Below, piece by piece: positions 3,001-23,132 of a stretch of DNA of 64,000 bases. The translations under genes and the position numbers were made by a program. Origin of the DNA: Yuukianura sp. NJ FZ-2021. Its lineage: Eukaryota. A model generated the notes under the pieces. It was not told where the DNA came from and did not search any database. It worked only from the letters and a program-made list of their open reading frames with translations. Numbering within the stretch: the stretch's first letter is position 1; the number at the start of each line of letters is the position of its first letter. Location of the stretch: positions 9,920,001 to 9,984,000 of the forward strand of contig CM102289.1 of NCBI GenBank assembly GCA_046563655.1, in the 5' to 3' direction.

Positions 3001-6000
3001 GATCAGTTGGTTCAACAATCCAACGCGGAGGAACTAATTTAAAGTAAAATCACAATTAGCATGTTTTCTTCACGTAGACGTTGGTAAATGTGGCTAAAAA
3101 GCGACAAGCACATGCGCACCACCATTAAGAAAGTACAGCACAGAAACTAAAAGTACAAATAGTAATTGTTAAATGAAAGTGAAATAATATTAAAAAGCAT
3201 AAAAGAGAATAAGAAGCATGGGAGGATTGGAGGGGAGACAGGAAAGGAAATGGATTTGTGACCCTAGTTACTCCCACCAAGTTAATTCGCAGCCTAACCA
3301 CCACCTCCAGGAATGTCCAGGAATAAGGGAATGAGGAACGTTAACGTTATTTGAGCTAACCTCATGCCCCTCCCACAACCGAATCCACCAATGACATCAA
3401 TCGCTGCTAAGCAATCACAAATCTATTCAAACCATCCACTTGAAGAAACGCTGAGGAGTTGGCCACTCCAGCCGAATTCCGAGCAGTGCAAGTGTACTCT
3501 TCCCAAAAAATCAAAGACAACTTCAAAATACTAAAATGTTCAACTTTTGTAAAATGTTTTGGAATTTGTTGAACTTTGAGCTCACCGCCCTGATTGGAGG
3601 GAGAGACTGGTTCTACAATGAGGACGTTGACACGGGCACCTAACGGAGCCGTTTTGAGACCGAGATGGGATCCCAGCGGACCGCCTTGGAAACTCCAGAA
3701 AATTTCCATCGGAAGGTCGCCTGATTTCAAATTTCGTTCAAACTTAAACTTCCCGCCAAAACTGAAACTTTACGTTTTGGACAAACCTTCGCTGACTAAG
3801 CATGTTGCTTGAGTCGTACTTCCAGCTAGGACAGGATCGAGTGTAAATGGGACAATGGTTGGAGGAACTGGAACAAAATCAAAAGCTTTCTCTCAAAATG
3901 TTGAAATTCTACGGTATCGGATCACAAATTTTCAGAAAAACTGGGTAGAATACAAAACTGAAAAAAATGAGCAGCACAGGCGAAGATGCTAAAAACTCCG
4001 AGGAACGAATACCTTGGACGACAAGATTGGCAGCAAATGTGCTGTTGCCTACTTTGTTTTTGGCTGTGCAAGTATATTTTCCACTGTGACTATGCTCCAT
4101 ATTTTCAATCATGAGGAGACTATTACGATCACCAACTTTCATTGTAGTTACTCCCTCCTGCTTCAATGTCGTTGCTTCTAAACTCTCGAAACTCCATTGA
4201 AATTGAAACGGCGGATCCCCCTCAGTCACAACACAGCCCACTTGAATCGAATTCCCAAAATGGTGAGCGTTTTCTCCGAAACTGAACGGCAGGATTTTGG
4301 GAGCGACTATTTCCAAATAATGTAAATCGTTAAATTCCGAAAATTCTTCACTAAAATTCTAAAATTCGAATTCTACTAAAAAAAATCACTTCTTTCGCTT
4401 CCTGTAAGGTTGGATAGGGAGAAAAACAGAAAAAATTAGCAAAGATTCGCAGATGCAAACGGCGCTAAAACTCCCAACAAAACTAAATACCTTGGACAAC
4501 AAGATTTGCCGCAAAAGTGGAGTTGCCTACTCTGTTTTTAACAGTACACGAATACTTTCCACTGTGGTTGTGCTCCATGTTCTCAATTGAAAGGAGACTC
4601 GTCCGATCTCCAATCTTCATCGTAGTTACTCCCTCCTGTTTGAGCGTCGTCGCCTCCAGACTCTCGAAGCTCCACTGAAAATGGAACGGTGGATCCCCCT
4701 CAGTCACGGTGCACATAACCTGGATTTGATTCCCAAATAGATGGTCGTTCTCTCCGAAGCTGAACGGCAGAATCTTTGGAGCAACTATTTCCAAATAACT
4801 TTAAATCATTAAAATCCTAAACATCCCAATTCCACTAACCAGTCACTTAAGTTCACTTCCTGTAAGGTAGCATAAGGAGAGAAAAAGCATATTAGCAAGG
4901 ATTCGCAGAGGCAAACGATGGCGAAATCCGAAGGACACAAATACCTTGGACAAGAAGATTGGCAGCATAAGTGCTGTTGCCTACTTTGTTTTTGGCCGTG
5001 CAACTGTACTTTCCACTGTGACTATGTTCCAAATTGTCAATCATCAAAACACTACTGCGATCTCCCACTTTCATCGTAGTTACTCCCTCCTGTTTCAACG
5101 TCGTTGCTTCCAAACTCTCAAAACTCCACTGAAATTGAAATGGCGGATCCCCCTCAATCACAACACAGCTCACTTGAATTGAATTCCCAAAATAACGAGT
5201 GCTGTCTCCGAAACTGAACGGCAGGATTATGGGAGCAACTATTTCAAAAAGTATTTTAAAGAAACTTGTTTCAAAAATTAACTTACTTTAACTAAACTTT
5301 TAACTTACTTTGGAAACTTTGTTTCAAAAATCAGAAAAACGAACTCCCTTTTTTGAAAACTTGGATTTTTTTTAAATATACAAGGAAACACGGATGACTT
5401 TAGAGTAGAAAAAAAAATTTTTAAGAAAAAACTTAAAGTGGTTCCGAAATAAAACAAAAGAGACCAGAAAGCTTGGCAGCGTGAAGCCCAGACGGGGAAC
5501 GGGAATGTCCCCGGAACGAAATACCTTGAACGATTAGATTTGCCGAGTAAGTGGTATTTCCCACCTTATTTTTGACCATACAAGTATATTTGCCAGTATG
5601 CGTATGTTCCACACTCTCAATAAACAAAAGACTACTTCTGTCTCCTGCTTTCATCGTAGTTACTCCCTCCTGTTTCGCAGTTGTCGCTTCCACACTTTCA
5701 AAGCTCCATTGAAATTGAAACGGCGGATCACCCTCCGACACGACACATTGGATTTGGACAGAATGCCCAAACTCATGTGCATTCTCACCGAAACTGAACG
5801 GCAGAATTCGGGGAGAAACTAAACAAAAAACCGGCAAAAATTACTACTTCGAATTTTGTCGGGAAAACGGGAATAGGAAAGTCATGAGGAAACTCCCGCC
5901 TTAAATTAAAGTAAAAACAAGTAGCAGCTTGCACGTCGTCAGCATGTTGAAATTAATTCCGAAGTTTACCGTGGACGACCAATTCAAAACTCTTGGAAGT

Positions 6001-15000: not shown

Positions 15001-18000
15001 ATCCCTGTGCTGGACAAAGTACTGCGAGGTCACTTCCTTGCAAATACTTGTAGGACTGTGACCCTGAGCTTGAAGAAAACTTTGGAGCAATTCGTCCAAC
15101 AGGTTCTTCAACAAAAAACAAAAACCTCAACTTTAAGTTCCAAAAACTACAACTTTCCATTGAAATACGAATATTGGGAGACTGGACAGACTGGTGAAAG
15201 TATTTTTAAAAAGCGAATCTTAACATTTTTTGGAAATCGTGAATCTGACCTTGTGTTTGGAACTTCGTGACCTTGTGAATTGCACAAGAGAGAAAGTCCA
15301 TTTCCCTGCGCATGCGTGAATGACCCCTGAATTCCGCCTGAACTAGTCGCAAACCGTGGACCAATACCCCCAATTGGCTCTGTTCCAAGCACCAAATTTA
15401 CAAATTTAAAAATTCCTCATCAAAAATTTAAAAAAAATGTCGGGAGAGGGGCAGCAAAATGCAAGAAATTAAGACATTTTAAAAACATGAACCGCTCATA
15501 CTTGTAAGTTCCAACAGGAAATGCTTGTGCTTCACACAAAAGTGCTCCTGAATCTCCGCTTCCATAAGCAACTGTTGGACGCAGAAGGAGCGGAATCTTT
15601 GGTCCTACGCTTGCCACCGGTTCTAAACAACCAATCAACTCAAATTCAAAAATCAAAACAATCTCAACTGAAACTTAACATCTGCGTGTTGGGAAAGTGG
15701 AGTGACAGCAAATTGGAAAAAGTTGAGCCCAAGTGACCTGAGGTCACTGACCTCCTGTCCTTACGTTGTGACTGGTGGTGGAAATGAGGAAGATGCTGGA
15801 CAAAGAAGTGCAAATGAAGATGCCTTTTCCTTAATGAACGCCTGAACATGCGACTGCGTAGAACTCTGCGGTCTCGAATGTCCTGCTGGCTCTAATTTAC
15901 CAATTCAATCACTCAATTTCAACCTTAAACCGCAAAAAATTGCAAAAAACCTAGCCGAAAATTCTTAAAAACCGAAATATTGGGTGGGAAAGTCATTTTG
16001 CAAATCATGAAAAAAAAAAACGGAAAAAGTGACAAAAATGTGTTTTTTGAGCCACTTTTGCTTACTTATACTTTGGAGGTTCAAATCCAGTTGCAGTGCA
16101 TGACATAGAGATTCCCGTGCCCGCCTCTCTTACGAATGTCAACGTTCTTTGCTCAGAGGGGAAACTCGGTTTCATGTGAACATTGTTCGGTTCTAGGCAA
16201 ATTCCAAAACACTCTCAAGTATTTCCTAACTGTCCGAGAGACGGCGTGACAACAATCTTCCTACGCGCATGCGCTAATTCGGAGTGCAAGCAAAACAAGA
16301 TGAAAGTTGGGGATGAGGTCAAAGGTCAAAGAGAATGACTGGGTCAACTCACGCTGTTTTTGGAACAGGAAATGCGGATGTTTGGCAAAACAAAGTATGG
16401 CCTGTTCCGGAAGAAGTTTCCACTGAACGACTCTTCTCGTTCCCAAGCGTAAATCTCGGAGGCACAACACCCACCGGATCTTACAAAGTTCACATATGAT
16501 TCAGCATCTTAATTTTTTAACTCTCAAGTTTACCAATGGTAAAATTTAAACATGATAAATTACCGTTAACTGTTTAACTTTTACAAATTTTCATGTTTCA
16601 TTTTTAAAAATTTAAGCCGGCAGTTTACTCTGTCAGCACTGTGGAAATTAACGGGAAGCGGTTTGGTTTTCCAGATTTAAAATCAAAACTAAGAGCGGGA
16701 AAGTGGAAATTAAAACTAAAAAGTAGGCTAATTTAAGTAAAAACTAACCTAGTGATTGGAACTGGAAATGCGGAAGCGGCAGGACAAACGAGTGGAACAG
16801 ATTCCGATTCAACACCTCCAACCAATTTTAACTTTTCAGAAATAGCAACAGAAGGAGCCACGCTGCTCACAGGTTCTGATAAAACCAAACCAATTATGAC
16901 GCTAACTTGGAAGTTTCTTAAACCACTTGCAAAATGTTCAATTTTACTTTAAGTTTTTTGCAAACAGTGGGTGATATGAACTTGATTAGAAAATTGCAAA
17001 TCACTTCCCGTCTCCCAACATTCAGGTTTGGATTGCAAATGGCTTTTCAACTCATCATCATTCCATTTACGTTAACACTCAAGTTACTTTATCACAATTT
17101 TCAACGTTTTCCATAAAAATTTGACAGAGTTGGCCAATTTGCAATCTCTGAGAAAATACAATCAAATTCCAACACAATCCGTTTTCCAAAATTTCAACAG
17201 TTCATCTTGAATTTTACATAACATCTCCAAAATTGTGTCGAAAATTATTAGAATGAGAAATCGTGTTGTTTTTTGACATATATTTTCTCAAAAAAATATT
17301 TTCTAAGAAAAAACATAGCTTCAGCTTACCTGTTACGACCAATTTTCCGGCAGTTGCAGACAATCGAGTTTCACCAGTAAGTCGATGCTTGGTTTGACAT
17401 CTAAAAAAAACACCAAAAAATTTCTTTTACAAACTTGTCTAAAATCTTTTAAAAATCCAAATTTATTGCCCACTAATTACCTGTATTCTTTCAACCCATC
17501 TTCCGGCCGTACATCTTTGATGTGCAATTCTCCCGACGGCAACACAACAAATTTACCATCTTAAAAACCACAAACACAACGTCAACATCCAAACTTCATT
17601 TTAAAATTAGAAATAGAATTGTAAGAACAATCGGACATGGCGGGTGCACGGGTTAATATTAGGTCAATTTACATTTTACTTTTTAACTTTATTTTTACAA
17701 AAATCCGGGTTTTATTGTTCAAAGGCGGAACTGACTCTTTTGCGAATGCGGAAATCTTTTTATTTAAAACTAACCATTGATTTTGGCTACATCTCTGGGA
17801 TAGACGTTTTCGTCACTGTCTTGCCATGAAAGGATTTCCAAAAATTCTGCAATGTAAGATCCCATCTTACACTTCATCACAGCAGCATTCGCACTTTACA
17901 GTCAAAACAAACAATTTCAACGTGTGATCTCTTTAGTTTCACTTTTTAAATTTCAACCTGGACTTAAGATCTCATACCTGATGACATATTCGTTCTCAGC

Positions 18001-21000
18001 ATGAGTGTCGTAGACTTGCGATACGACTGAAATCAAAACCAATTCAAAAATTACAACTCTAAAAAGTGCTAATTTTGTAAACCCTGCTCAATTTTTAGCT
18101 CCTAAATCTTAGTCCTAACAATAACCTTGACCTGCCATGTCCTATCTTTCTTTTTAGTTTTCCTAAACGCACCAAATTGTTCAGAATTTGAAGGTGTGAA
18201 AACGTCTCCAGTGGAAGTTCGCCATTCAGTGATGGTCATGTACTCGGTGGAAAAGGAAACAGAACACGTGAAAATTATGTTGTTCCCTCTACACAAATCA
18301 ACAAAACCTATCCATTTCAACATTTCACTTTTCAAAATTTCAACTTTTTTTAAAAATCCGAACCTAATGACTTGTTTGTTATGAACTTCAACAAGAACGT
18401 GTTGCGGAATCACTAGGAATTAAACAAATTAGAAACAAAAATTACAAATGGCAAAATTTTCTTCAAAAATTTAAATCTAAAACCTGAGAGTGAGCTTAAA
18501 ATTATTGCCGCGATTCCAAAATAGTCGTATGTGTGAATTGTGAAATCAAAGTTTGTCTATGATTTTACATTTCGTTAGACACGTTGTTCTATTTTGAATT
18601 TTTAAACTTTCTAAAAGTAAGGCCCGGCCCACCATGTCCTATTGCCACTTTTTCTAAAATTTAAAACAGACCGTATTCTTTTGAACTCTCAGGAGAGTAA
18701 ATTTCACCGGTCGTAGTTCGCCACTCCGTTACGTACAAATATTCAGTGGAAAATGAAACCGAGCACACAAAAATTATGTTATTCCCCCTAAAATCCAAAT
18801 TCAAAATTTTATAAAAGTAATTCCTATTTTAGCAAATCCTTAGAAACTGATACCTTATGACTTGCTTATCATGAACTTGCACCAGAAGATGTTGTGGAAT
18901 CACTAAAAATTTAATTTCAAACTTTAAAAAAAAAATGAAATTTTATTTTAAAGTATCGCTTTTGCTTCTACCCTGCACCCGCCAGACGATTGTCTTCTGA
19001 AAAATAATTTCTAACCGAGCTTTTGAGATTCTACTGCATAAGAATCTCCATCTGAATCCTTCCAGGAAACAATGCTAAAGTAATCACTGCCAAACGGAAT
19101 GTAGCATCTCAGGATTCCGTAGTTCAGAACATACACATGATCATTCTGAACTTCAACAACGTAATCTTGATTTACAACTAAAAAGTCAAAAAGTCAAAAC
19201 TCAAAATTTCACTTTTCAATTTCGAAATTTTAGCATTTCGTTCCCCTTGCAACCTGCGCATGTCCGCTTATCCCTTCAATTTTTGCCAAAATGTTACCAT
19301 ATTGCTCATTTCGAGAAATTGGAACATCCGCTTGAAACCATTTTTCAATTTCAATAAAGTCAGCCACATACGACGGACTACATTTCAAAACGCATTCAAA
19401 AATTTCAAAATTTTCCAAAAACCTACAAAAATTACAAAATTTGAAATCTGTACAACTTTGATTGAATTTTACCTGACACATTTAAAGACAGCAGCATTCC
19501 GTGCAATGACTTGTTGTCGGAAAATGTCAACTTCATAGCCTTGTGACACAACTGCAAATATTTGTAGCTTTTAACTTTTGTAGCTTTTGTAATTTTACAA
19601 TTTTATAACCCGGTCAAATGAAAACAAAACTCTACCTAAAAATTAACCCTTGCACTTTTTCCCACGTCCGAGATGTTCTTTTTCCAACTTTTTACCGTAA
19701 ATGTCATTTCTCGGAATAGGAACATCCCCTTGAAACCATTTGTCAATGTCAACGAAATCAGTCACATACGATGGACTAGCACAAAGTGATCATTTTTAAA
19801 TCTCAAAAAATATCTCACTTTTCCCTAGGATGTCAACTGGTGGCCGAATTTACCTCAAGCATTTGAAAATGGCAGCGTTCCGTGAAATGACCTGTTGCCG
19901 CACAATGTCAACCTCATACGACTGTGCCACCACTGCAAAAATTATGCCCAACTTTTCATTAAAATCTAAAATTTAATCCCAATTGTCGCTTTCTCCGCAG
20001 GATATTAACGAGAATTAGCAAATTGTCTAACTTAACCAATGCACCCGTACGAGAACAAAAATCTCGCAGCCATGTTCGCTTTTCCGTCAATTTAAAATTT
20101 AAAATTCATAAAGTTACCGTAATTTTCATTTTTCTGAATGGGAACATCCCCTTGAAACCATTTCTCTACCCCAACAAAGTCAACCACAAACGACGGACTG
20201 AAGTGGATTAATTAAATATAATAGTTAATTAAATTAAGTTTAAAAATTAATGTTCCCGCTTTCCTAAATTACTTGAATTACCTCTGGCACTTAAACACTG
20301 CTGCGTTGTTTGCAATTACTTGTTGTTTCATCACATCAACATCATACATCTGAGACACAACTGAAACCATTCCCAAAATTCACCATTTTCAAAAACAATT
20401 TCAGAACAAAATTTGAAAAGAGCAGAATTCACTTTCAAAATTGACCCGGGACGCAACAAAAATCTGTAAAATTTGAGCACTTCTTTTACGCCTACCTCAT
20501 CCATGTCCGATTTTTTTCTCTTTTTTTTAAAGTGAAGTAAAAGTGTACCGTAGTTTTGTTGTTGTTTTATGGGATTGTCTCCGTGAAACCAAGAATCAAC
20601 GTGAATGAAATCACTCACATACGAAGGACTAACAAACAACACCAATATTTACTCAACGAATCACCGATTACTCCACACCTCAAACATTAGTTTTTAAGTT
20701 CCCCAATTACCTGATACACTTGAAAATGGCAGCGTTATGTTTGATTATGTCTTCATCGTACACTTTGTTTGCATAACTCTGATACACCACTTCAAACAAA
20801 AACCAAACATGAAAATTTCAATTAAAGTTATAACCTATTCGACTAGGAAGTGAAAATCAATGCCATTTGAGCAATGGGTGTCACTTTTTTCCGTTTAAAT
20901 TGTGCTAAATACCGTACACCCGCAGCCTTTAAAGTCCGAGTGCCCTCAAAAAATCGTTTATAATTTTTTTTTTACCAAAGTTGTCATTTCTTGTGATTTT

Positions 21001-23132
21001 TCCATCGTCCACTAACCAATCCTCCACACGCACAAAGTCAGTCACAAACGGGGGACTCAAAGAACATGTAAAAATTCCATGATTCTGAATAATCACATGC
21101 TGCTTCAGCACATCCACTTCGTAGTACTGCGTAATCACTTTAAAAAACGTTTAACAAACGTTACAGAAATACATAAATTTAAAAAGTATGAAACATTGTA
21201 AACTACGGGTGACAATGTAGAGCATTGACCTAACTCTGACCCTGTCTCCTGCCTATGTCCGAATTGTCTCTTTTTAAAACTTGTAACTAATTGTACCGTA
21301 GTTATCATTTTGGCCTCTTTTAATTGAGACATCATCTTGAAACCAACTGTCCACTTCCAGGAAGTCGATTACAAAAGCAGGCGTAAACAAGCACTTGAAA
21401 ATGGCATTGTTCTTAAAAATGACGTCCTCCTCAAACACTTTGGCAGCGTAGTGCTGGTTCACAACTGAAAACCAGGTCCAAAAAATACAGCATTCCCTTC
21501 GCTAATGCTTACTTGTCAGAAATTTTCAGAGAATTTTAAAATTTAAAAACTGAGCCAAATATTGTCCCAAGTACACCAGCGATGTCGACGTCCCTGTAAG
21601 TCCGATTGACCTACCGTACTTGTCGTTTGGCTCCACCGGAGTGTCATCAAGCATCCAACTGCTCACAACGACTGACCCTGACACTATTGCTGGGATGTTG
21701 CACTTTGTAATTTGGTTATTCCCAGTAATCACAAAGTCATCCATCACATTCGCTGCATACGGTTGACTAACGACTATTAAGTTAGGAACATTAATCCCCA
21801 GTCTCAATTTCACATGTCGCCATCTTACTATTTTTTTTAAATAACTCCCTCTGCTCAGCTTCGCGCTTTTTTTAAAAGAAAAATGGAAAAAGTGTGGGCT
21901 TACCTGCTCTGACGTGGACATCGCGAGAGTTGATGGTTCCAACTGAGTTTCGAGCCAAGCAAATGTACGTCTGCGCGTGAACTTCTTGTCGGTAGTCCTC
22001 GGCTCGGAAAGGCGGAAAAACCAAAGCTCCAGACGCCAAAACCTGCAAAAACAAATTCAAATCAAATCATGATGACAAATGAAAAGCATTTCAGCACACT
22101 CCATCAACAATTTAAAAAATTAGGCTATTTTTTGTCAAGTTAGAAACAAACAGAGGGCCAGTTCCATGCTTTTTTTGTCTAACTTTTTCCATCTGATGAG
22201 GCAGATGCTTGGGATGCAGCCAGACCGAGATCATATGGACCAAACAAGGCAGATGTTGGATGAACCAACTGTGGATTTGAAAGTTTCAGGATTTTCAGAG
22301 GATTAGAAAGTGTTTCTGACCTGTCTTAGTCCAGGAACATCTCCGATGGCAGTCCCGTCACCCCGAAGCCAAATGATTTCCGGTTGAGGATTTCCTCTTG
22401 CTTGGCAAGGAATCTCAGCTCCAGTTGAATTGGAGAAATCCATCTTGGATTGCGGTTCCCGAACAAATACCGGTCCAGTTTCTTCGTCAGAAGTTCCAGT
22501 TCCAGGAGAATTGGCATGACCTGGGAATCAACAAAAACCGAAAAACTGTTATCATTAAAATATTCTGAACAACTTTACATAAAAAAACTTATCACTAGAG
22601 ATTCATTGTCATAAGAAAGTGTAATCCACCGAGAAAGGAGAGGAGGGGCTTTAAATCTTAAAGAGTTTTCCTTTTTCGTTGGGTTTCCTGCCGAACAAAA
22701 AAAGTGCCGTGCTCCGTTTAAGGGGCACGTGAGAGCCCTTGGAGCTCCACATGCCCTTCATCATTGATCCAACATCTGCTTCTCCGTAGCCATTGTTACA
22801 ACAATGCAGTGTGGCCCTGAGCAAATGTCACAATGATGAAGGGCTCTCCCATCGTCCCTTGGCCTTATATGGTGCTTCTACTTGGGCATTTCATGGTGTC
22901 TTGCTGGATTATGCTGGATGGAAGCTGGATATTGATGGTCTCTGGACTCTGGCTACTAATAAACTAATGACACTGATTCAACTACTATCAACTAATTGAA
23001 ATTGAAGGACAGTTAACCTTTAGAAAAAGTTTAGTTTAGATTTAACTTTAGCAACTTGTTGGACTTACCGAAGTCGACGCCCGCAGTTAGCACGATGACC
23101 AACAACACCGGAAGAAACTCCTTCCAGTACAT
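1..23132 (-). CDS. Dscam1: Hypervariable Dscam1 (Down syndrome cell adhesion molecule), multi-exon; the 3' part (rest of Ig10, FN5-6, TM, cytoplasmic tail) runs off the left edge of the window
   Basis: ATG at 23132 (MYWKEFLPVLLVIVLTAGVDF signal peptide, exon 23132-23069). Ig1 exons 22520-22321 (GPVFVREPQSKMDFSNSTGAEIPCQARGNPQPEIIW) and 22042-21904 (LVFPPFRAEDYRQEVHAQTYICLARN), a diagnostic Dscam sequence. Constitutive exons 17559-17481 and 17400-17330 (DGKFVVLPSGELHI...CQTKHRLTGETRLSAT), 11500-9968 (Ig3 C-half to Ig6) and 3033-1 (VPPRWIVEPTD Ig8, Ig9, FN1-4, VPAKIASF start of Ig10). Splice sites and phases were consistent wherever checked. Confidence 0.98.
2061..2111 (+). repeat. Intronic 10-bp tandem repeat (~5 copies of TTGGAAATAC-like unit)
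   Basis: ctggaaatac ttccgaatac ttggaaatac ttgcaagtac ttgggaatac, inside a Dscam intron. Confidence 0.75.
3391..3420 (-). promoter_or_regulatory. Candidate Dscam exon-9 cluster downstream docking site
   Basis: Transcript-sense sequence is TTGTGATTGCTTAGCAGCGATTGATGTCAT, just after variant 9.14. Partial complements lie about 30-55 nt downstream of most variants (5471-5481, 8155-8169, 7672-7684, 9024-9037, 4436-4447, 4892-4903). Confidence 0.7.
3433..9760 (-). CDS. Dscam1: Dscam Ig7 mutually exclusive exon array ('exon 9' cluster), 14 variants, the last one in three pieces
   Basis: Whole-Ig exons (VPP/VAP start, C..GD.P...W, YxC; 282-309 nt, phase 1-1): 9760-9464, 9366-9073, 8942-8634, 8492-8199, 8020-7724, 7557-7255, 7080-6799, 6683-6393, 6260-5970, 5818-5525, 5238-4945, 4784-4491, 4306-4013. 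Variant 9.14 = 3867-3787 + 3720-3586 + 3498-3433. Confidence 0.95.
11690..16875 (-). CDS. Dscam1: Dscam Ig3 N-half mutually exclusive exon array ('exon 6' cluster), 20 variants
   Basis: Exons (AG/GT flanked, 118-133 nt, phase 1 to 2, (E/D)xxxxxP...C....P pattern): 16875-16749, 16479-16353, 16192-16066, 15891-15765, 15622-15502, 15379-15250, 15105-14982, 14877-14757, 14598-14472, 14363-14240, 14118-13992, 13865-13742, 13611-13494, 13380-13257, 13165-13039, 12892-12766, 12630-12510, 12393-12261, 12120-12000, 11813-11690. Confidence 0.95.
17001..17053 (-). promoter_or_regulatory. Dscam exon-6 cluster docking site (upstream, in the intron after constitutive exon 5)
   Basis: Transcript-sense sequence is TTGAAAAgccatttgcaatccaaaCCTGAATGTTGGGAGACGGGAAGTGA. 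The CCTGAATGTTGGGA core is the conserved insect Dscam1 exon-6 docking core. Complementary selectors precede the variants, e.g. a 17-nt perfect complement at 13676-13692. Confidence 0.92.
17624..17668 (-). promoter_or_regulatory. Dscam exon-4 cluster downstream docking site
   Basis: Transcript-sense sequence is ATTGACCTAATATTAACCCGTGCACCCGCCATGTCCGATTGTTCT. Complementary segments lie just downstream of each of variants 4.1-4.10 (e.g. 18970-18996, 19642-19679, 18623-18644, 20501-20512). Confidence 0.85.
17775..21773 (-). CDS. Dscam1: Dscam Ig2 N-half mutually exclusive exon array ('exon 4' cluster), 11 variants, 7 of them split into two half-exons
   Basis: Intact variants: 4.1 21773-21615, 4.2 21464-21297, 4.3 21137-20976, 4.8 19177-19016. 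Split variants: 4.4 20789-20711+20628-20549; 4.5 20360-20282+20197-20118; 4.6 19932-19854+19775-19696; 4.7 19551-19473+19377-19298; 4.9 18902-18854+18787-18672; 4.10 18412-18364+18288-18173; 4.11 18026-17978+17893-17775. All begin V(V/I)xQ, contain the Ig Cys and Trp, total 159-168 nt and run phase 1 to phase 1. Confidence 0.95.

Follow-up and report, generated by a model that had tools for sequence, protein, structure and literature searches.

How does an array of mutually exclusive exons select one variant when most of its variants are themselves divided between two exons? The question is raised by a 64,000-nucleotide (nt) stretch of contig CM102289.1 from Yuukianura sp. NJ FZ-2021 (the window; all positions are counted from its first letter), which holds the exon 4 (Ig2) array of a Dscam1 gene, from a clade that is probably Collembola as judged by the protein matches of one exon. 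We find that a single docking site, placed in the intron before exon 5, is complementary to a selector behind every variant other than the last, and that in the split variants such selectors stand behind the second exon, none lying in the intron between the two halves. The reading we favour, to which we give a probability of about 70%, combines a downstream layout of competing RNA pairings with constitutive splicing of the introns inside the variants, so that the choice would be made among 11 cassettes.

Three-frame translation and inspection of splice junctions placed the Dscam1 gene on the minus strand across 17400-22100, in the order exon 3, 11 alternative exons for the N-terminal half of Ig2, and exon 5. 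The borders of all 20 exon pieces are canonical (AG/GT), and each of the 11 variants between exons 3 and 5 has an open frame of 53-56 residues in which the Q4/C25/W40 pattern is kept. A preliminary description of this DNA had counted ten variants; it missed 4.11, the one that has no selector. Four variants (4.1, 4.2, 4.3 and 4.8) are single exons and the other 7 of the 11 are split by a short phase-2 intron, which falls in codon 27 in type A (4.4-4.7; introns of 78-95 nt) and in codon 17 in type B (4.9-4.11; introns of 66-84 nt). The introns that separate one variant from the next measure 113-259 nt. Downstream come an Ig3 array of about 20 half-exons and an Ig7 array of about 14 exons, giving the gene the usual three-array layout of pancrustacean Dscam1. 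In a protein search, one constitutive Ig exon matched proteins named Dscam1 or Dscam2; among the matches listed for this single exon the highest identity was 80%, to an Orchesella dallaii entry, and insect and crustacean entries stood at 57-69%. On this showing the animal is probably a springtail or a near relation of springtails; a protein atlas yielded generic Ig clusters, uninformative as to taxon.

We tested pairing with RNAduplex, matching the reverse complement of 17624-17668 against each intron and, as a control, against 300 dinucleotide shuffles of that intron. A selector was detected in all ten inter-variant introns, with duplex energies (dG) of -33.8 to -49.1 kcal/mol and z scores of -3.97 to -8.36, each at the floor of the test (p = 1/301). 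The complementarity that the preliminary description had proposed between this element and a segment after each of 4.1-4.10 is thus borne out: pairing energies are better than in shuffled introns, and all ten selectors beat all 300 shuffles. The selectors start 0-31 nt past the 5′ splice site of the preceding variant, in agreement with the earlier statement that they occur only past the 3′ half-exon. Likewise, the internal introns were said to carry no comparable match, and none of the seven contains a selector (z +1.10 to -1.73, p >= 0.06). For the intron that precedes 4.1, after exon 3, the value was borderline (z -2.0, p 0.05). Nine of the ten selector positions first proposed fall inside the sites found here; the exception is the one after 4.1, given as 21600-21608, where the full site lies within 21537-21614.

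As a guard against circularity we ran an unbiased scan in which every fifth 45-nt window of the transcript (22100..17400; n = 932) served as a pseudo-docking site. All ten introns were bound at -30 kcal/mol or below only by windows inside 17606-17680. The best median there was -40.3 kcal/mol, compared with a background median of -18.9; no unrelated window did better than -28, the value for one in GC-rich exon 3. The docking site originally placed at 17624-17668 is therefore real, with a paired region that is slightly wider (17623-17670). It begins 105 nt past the donor of 4.11 and ends 63 nt ahead of the exon 5 acceptor. A docking core at 17623-17652 is common to all ten selectors, and at least eight of the ten pair with most positions in it; because the core is shared, only one selector can pair at a time.

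Variant 4.11 stands apart. A search for a selector belonging to it, including a local one, found none, and the docking site was not self-sequestered. The acceptor of the 4.11 3′ half lies in a poor context (…ctgtaaag/), and folded by itself the docking-site intron shows no structure (z 0.70). Elsewhere in the cluster we noted an extra site complementary to the docking element at 19902-19958 on the minus strand (-31.9 kcal/mol), which runs over the acceptor of the 4.6 5′ half and 30 nt into that half. It shares its intron with the 4.5 selector, as a second site there, in a region that the contig of the closest relative (L021, below) does not cover.

Relatives were sought in metagenome contigs, where a scan for 17 bases from the docking site returned 65 loci. 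Chance matches accounted for 61 of them, with little similarity in the flanks and, in most cases, a G+C-rich composition. The remaining four (L016, L021, L035 and L062) lie on A+T-rich contigs, show extended similarity and belong to the same Dscam gene; the open reading frames of L062 equal those of L035 over the shared part, so we treated these two as one taxon. The relatives' clusters are seen in part, each contig covering the last five or six variants only. The 30-nt docking core is identical in all four contigs, that is, in three related taxa, and a 36-nt docking block (17623-17658) is identical in L021, the closest relative. The exons of L021 are 78% identical to those of the window (701/898 positions), and the introns are 45% identical (144/320 positions in internal introns and 316/700 in inter-variant introns outside the cores), which is no better than background. 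Identical intronic runs of at least 8 nt between the two are confined to splice junctions, five selector cores (8-13 nt), the docking site (36 nt) and a single 11-nt block. This U/G-rich block, at 17564-17574 on the minus strand, lies directly 5′ of the exon 5 acceptor and may be a polypyrimidine or branch region used by all variants.

When each taxon's own docking site was used as the probe, selectors were recovered in 4/4 inter-variant introns of L021, 4/4 of L016 and 5/5 of L035. These 13/13 selectors had z scores of -1.9 to -9.7, ten of them at the floor of p 0.005 and three at p 0.010-0.025. In the internal introns of L021 a selector was found in 0/4. The energies of orthologous duplexes are kept between the window and L021 (-38.3/-39.3, -41.2/-42.8, -36.9/-38.1 and -36.0/-33.6 kcal/mol), and about a third of the base pairs differ, with 76 the same, 12 changed but still paired, 23 lost and 25 gained. 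As read from these alignments, the evidence for selection is the footprint in the introns together with the maintained energy.

The same comparisons bear on whether the complementarity might be an inert by-product of tandem duplication of introns, with no role in splicing. The selectors are paralogous, so some resemblance among them is expected anyway, and work in Drosophila has cast doubt on the exon 4 model as a whole (PMC6379703). Tandem duplication, however, makes no reverse-complementary partner, and it would have to be reconciled with a docking core shared unchanged by four contigs from three related taxa and with pairing energies that are kept despite the turnover of pairs. Moreover, apart from the splice junctions and the 11-nt block at the exon 5 acceptor, intronic conservation is limited to the docking site and the selector cores. 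We regard an inert origin as very improbable.

The split layout is itself shared with the closest relative. The L021 orthologues of 4.7-4.11 match the window exactly in exon lengths and intron positions, and their borders are canonical too. The last five or six variants of L016 and L035 are all unsplit, which makes the gain or loss of the internal introns lineage-specific. A tree of the variants (26 rows, none dropped) matched 4.8-4.11 of the window with their orthologues in L021. It did not decide whether 4.11 and the last variant of L016 and L035, which is unsplit, are orthologues, and so does not settle between intron gain and intron loss.

Table 1 Features of the exon 4 region. Energies (dG) are in kcal/mol; the two positions given for a split variant are those of its 5′ and 3′ halves.
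Feature	Position	Strand	Details
Exon-4 docking site	17623..17670	-	215-nt intron between 4.11 and exon 5; unique in 932-window scan
Selector after 4.1	21537..21614	-	main pairing 21548-21595; dG -39.2, z -3.97
Selector after 4.2	21214..21272	-	dG -46.2, z -8.36
Selector after 4.3	20896..20948	-	dG -40.0, z -5.30
Selector after 3′ half of 4.4	20438..20520	-	dG -33.8, z -4.44
Selector after 3′ half of 4.5	20018..20092	-	dG -38.1, z -4.59
Selector after 3′ half of 4.6	19613..19686	-	dG -49.1, z -8.20
Selector after 3′ half of 4.7	19244..19281	-	dG -37.0, z -4.66; 13-nt core identical in L021
Selector after 4.8	18955..19011	-	dG -40.7, z -7.72; 8- and 11-nt cores identical in L021
Selector after 3′ half of 4.9	18603..18656	-	dG -36.5, z -5.24; 9-nt core identical in L021
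Selector after 3′ half of 4.10	18077..18152	-	dG -40.6, z -6.01; 13-nt core identical in L021
Constitutive exon 3	21904..22042	-	donor CAG/gtaagc; splice-junction inspection
Unsplit variant 4.1	21773-21615	-	159 nt; AG/GT; in frame with exons 3 and 5
Unsplit variant 4.2	21464-21297	-	168 nt; AG/GT; in frame with exons 3 and 5
Unsplit variant 4.3	21137-20976	-	162 nt; AG/GT; in frame with exons 3 and 5
Split variant 4.4, type A	20789-20711 / 20628-20549	-	79 + 80 nt
Split variant 4.5, type A	20360-20282 / 20197-20118	-	79 + 80 nt
Split variant 4.6, type A	19932-19854 / 19775-19696	-	79 + 80 nt
Split variant 4.7, type A	19551-19473 / 19377-19298	-	79 + 80 nt; structure identical in L021
Unsplit variant 4.8	19016..19177	-	L021 orthologue unsplit too
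Split variant 4.9, type B	18902-18854 / 18787-18672	-	49 + 116 nt
Split variant 4.10, type B	18412-18364 / 18288-18173	-	49 + 116 nt
Split variant 4.11, type B	18026-17978 / 17893-17775	-	49 + 119 nt
Constitutive exon 5, first piece	17481..17559	-	splice-junction inspection

In the reading we favour, one selector would occupy the docking site at a time and the variants further downstream would be looped out. The unpaired stretch from the chosen donor to the exon 5 acceptor would then consist of about 63 nt on the docking side and 0-31 nt on the selector side, 63-94 nt together; this approximates the constitutive short introns of the gene (66-95 nt), so that the chosen donor would be joined to exon 5. 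In effect, pairing would let a long intron pass for a short one in splicing by intron definition. In the absence of any pairing the default would be 4.11, the variant that is nearest the docking site and lacks a selector.

Since the selectors lie only downstream of the 3′ halves and the internal introns have none, the pairing itself concerns only the junction with exon 5. To that extent the preliminary description was right to say that it fixes the 3′ half alone. The alternative it drew from this, either a free choice of the 5′ half or an unknown second mechanism, is not supported as stated, because it omits the ordinary early removal of short internal introns (66-95 nt). Even in unsplit variants a downstream selector is silent on which acceptor exon 3 will use, and the split variants therefore add no new problem of principle. 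With the docking site at the far 3′ end, the internal introns enter the transcript well ahead of it and can thus be removed first, fusing the pair into one unit. We suggest that all seven are ordinary constitutive introns that intron definition would remove ahead of the regulated choice, after which each pair of halves would behave as a single cassette. In this reading pairing would control the splicing of the cluster, and the halves would be joined cognately.

Donor strength is relevant to this order of events. The metazoan donor consensus is CAG/GTAAGT, and we compared donors with it by a hand count over nine positions, which is not a model score. Type A internal donors match at 7-8 of the nine positions, that of 4.11a at 7 and those of exons 3 and 5 at 8; the 11 regulated donors beside the selectors match at 4-6.

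A dedicated coupling device that links 5′ and 3′ halves, a protein bridge or exonic elements for example, might also operate here and be invisible as intronic pairing. Such a device would fit a split layout that is unchanged between two taxa whose introns are saturated, a constancy also compatible with accurate splicing, and the type-B donors 4.9a and 4.10a, weak by the hand count, may need help. We looked for traces of it in four ways. In the window scan, no 45-nt pseudo-docking site stood out for the internal introns or paired preferentially with them. The upstream, internal and downstream introns of the seven split variants showed no cognate-specific complementarity (means, cognate value first: -29.6 vs -27.3, -27.8 vs -27.8 and -51.0 vs -51.7). 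The internal introns had no unusual folding (z -1.7 to +1.8), and they shared no identical run of more than 5 nt with L021 away from the intron ends. Window scan, cognate pairing, folding and conservation in L021 thus disclosed no second RNA element coupling the halves; exonic elements were not searched separately from coding conservation. With no conserved intronic block, no cognate-specific complementarity and no structured internal intron, and with ordinary intron definition sufficient in principle, we consider a dedicated device quite unlikely.

A further possibility is that the halves are shuffled: the selector would fix the 3′ half only, and an upstream 5′ half of the same intron type could be joined to it. 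With shuffling, the number of Ig2 half-domains could rise from 11 to as many as 20 (10 type A, 6 type B and 4 unsplit), in which epitopes I and II might be recombined independently. The halves are compatible in phase, all seven internal introns being phase 2; within a type they are equal in length and have the same junction context, and neither selectors nor conserved elements link the two halves of a variant. Epitope I of exon 4 comprises 10 residues between Q4 and V15, and epitope II comprises 13 residues after W40 (PMC3236188), and both intron positions fall between the segments for the two. There is nothing statistically remarkable in this placement, which is not improbable by chance given that the epitopes are separated by about half of the exon. 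Were the choice free, type-A 5′ halves would also be linked with type-B 3′ halves, in frame and with the B-strand segment duplicated; such joins make up 12 of the 21 possible forward non-cognate combinations, and no frameshift removes them. Cognate halves, furthermore, are 66-95 nt apart, whereas the nearest non-cognate half is several hundred nucleotides away (513 nt, from 4.4a to 4.5b). We judge shuffling to be unlikely. If it did occur, combinatorial splicing within a mutually exclusive cluster would add a second layer to Dscam diversity, in which epitope I, which serves homophilic binding, would be recombined with epitope II, the outward-facing segment proposed as a surface for ligands or pathogens.

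Several observations weigh against our preference for competing pairing with constitutive internal introns. Its basis is genomic sequence, a search for sequencing runs having listed none of RNA. In Drosophila, experiments have called the exon 4 docking model into question (PMC6379703). The strand test was indifferent, as the duplexes fold equally well on the other strand (-41.8 vs -40.2 kcal/mol, with 32 G-U among 365 pairs). The docking site is invariant across all four taxa, so two-sided compensatory change is not observable; of the covariation in relatives that the preliminary description had looked to, kept energies and conserved cores were found, and no two-sided change was seen. In the hand count the donors of 4.9a and 4.10a match at only 5 of the nine positions and so do not surpass the regulated donors. 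Short introns also separate the variants from one another, and shortness alone leaves the constitutive splicing of the internal introns unexplained; one must suppose, as for every Dscam array, that the regulated sites are repressed in some way. Finally, a search of a large protein collection for proteins with the 3′ half of 4.9, the query being extended by two intron codons, gave 0 matches.

The docking site/selector system of Dscam1 exon 6 is reportedly owed to Graveley in 2005. As described in PMC6379703 and PMC3535345, it follows the same principle in the same gene, and is mirrored with respect to the present locus, with the docking site at the 5′ end of the cluster and a selector upstream of each variant. 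Docking/selector control of exon 6 is well supported, whereas for exon 4 it is a proposed model that is contested in Drosophila (PMC6379703, PMC7430681), and to call it established, as had been done for this DNA, is an overstatement. The downstream docking model for Drosophila exon 4 is credited to Yang et al. 2011 NSMB, as cited in PMC8042237, PMC6379703 and PMC7430681. It has the architecture found here, with docking in the intron after the last variant, a selector after each variant and competition proposed as the source of mutual exclusivity. According to PMC6379703, convincing selectors are present in few of the fly introns and the model is disputed; here 10/10 introns have one. The present locus differs in its two-exon cassettes too, and is likened to that of Drosophila by layout, the docking sequences not having been compared; exon 4 docking sites are described as clade-specific in Coleoptera (PMC8042237).

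The Coleoptera exon 4 cluster described in that paper likewise has a single docking element past the last variant, selectors past the variable exons and conservation of pairing within the clade. It contains 8-11 variants, compared with 11 here, and the main text of PMC8042237 uses neither 'split' nor 'intron within'; the clade of the present locus is probably Collembola. In Hymenoptera, dual docking has been reported for exon 4 (PMC4691838): as here, a docking site upstream of exon 5 pairs with intronic elements of the cluster, and there is an extra docking site downstream of exon 3. Our 932-window scan detected no such second docking region downstream of exon 3, although short stems under about -20 kcal/mol would escape it, and the intron between exon 3 and 4.1 showed no iStem-like structure (folding z 0.07). 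Competition of docking and selector sequences among alternative cassettes is also known from Drosophila PGRP-LC, CG42235 and Pip (PMC6191721), where it concerns alternative 3′ terminal regions, in contrast to the internal mutually exclusive array described here.

The downstream docking/selector layout for exon 4 is thus already known, and the two-exon cassettes are the new part. We found no description of exon 4 pairing in Collembola Dscam1 in the open-access literature; the Folsomia genome paper mentions only Dscam2 copies. Nor did we find, in the open-access literature, a report of split variable exons inside a Dscam array, a weak statement given that most subscription papers fall outside this scope. 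The locus would be an unusually clear member of the downstream layout, from a clade, probably Collembola, for which no description was found. It bears on the dispute over long-range RNA pairing at Dscam1 exon 4, in which one group finds too few selectors in flies (PMC6379703), as it has a strong selector in every inter-variant intron and a docking core conserved amid introns that cannot be aligned. It is also a natural experiment, in which a selector placed only behind the second exon of seven two-exon cassettes sets choice of the whole cassette against choice of the exon 5 donor, and it documents intron gain or loss inside the variable exons of a mutually exclusive array.

Two further observations concern the other arrays of the gene, both on the minus strand. 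Upstream of the Ig3 (exon-6-type) array, a 33-nt intronic block at 16994-17026 is conserved in L021 and L035. About 20 sites complementary to it at -31 kcal/mol or below are spread across 16960-11700, a count made without a shuffle control, and the block and these sites look like a classical exon 6 docking site with its selectors. In the Ig7 array, the last member, at about 3410-3892, consists of three separate open pieces, the other 13 members being single open frames; it may be another split variable exon.

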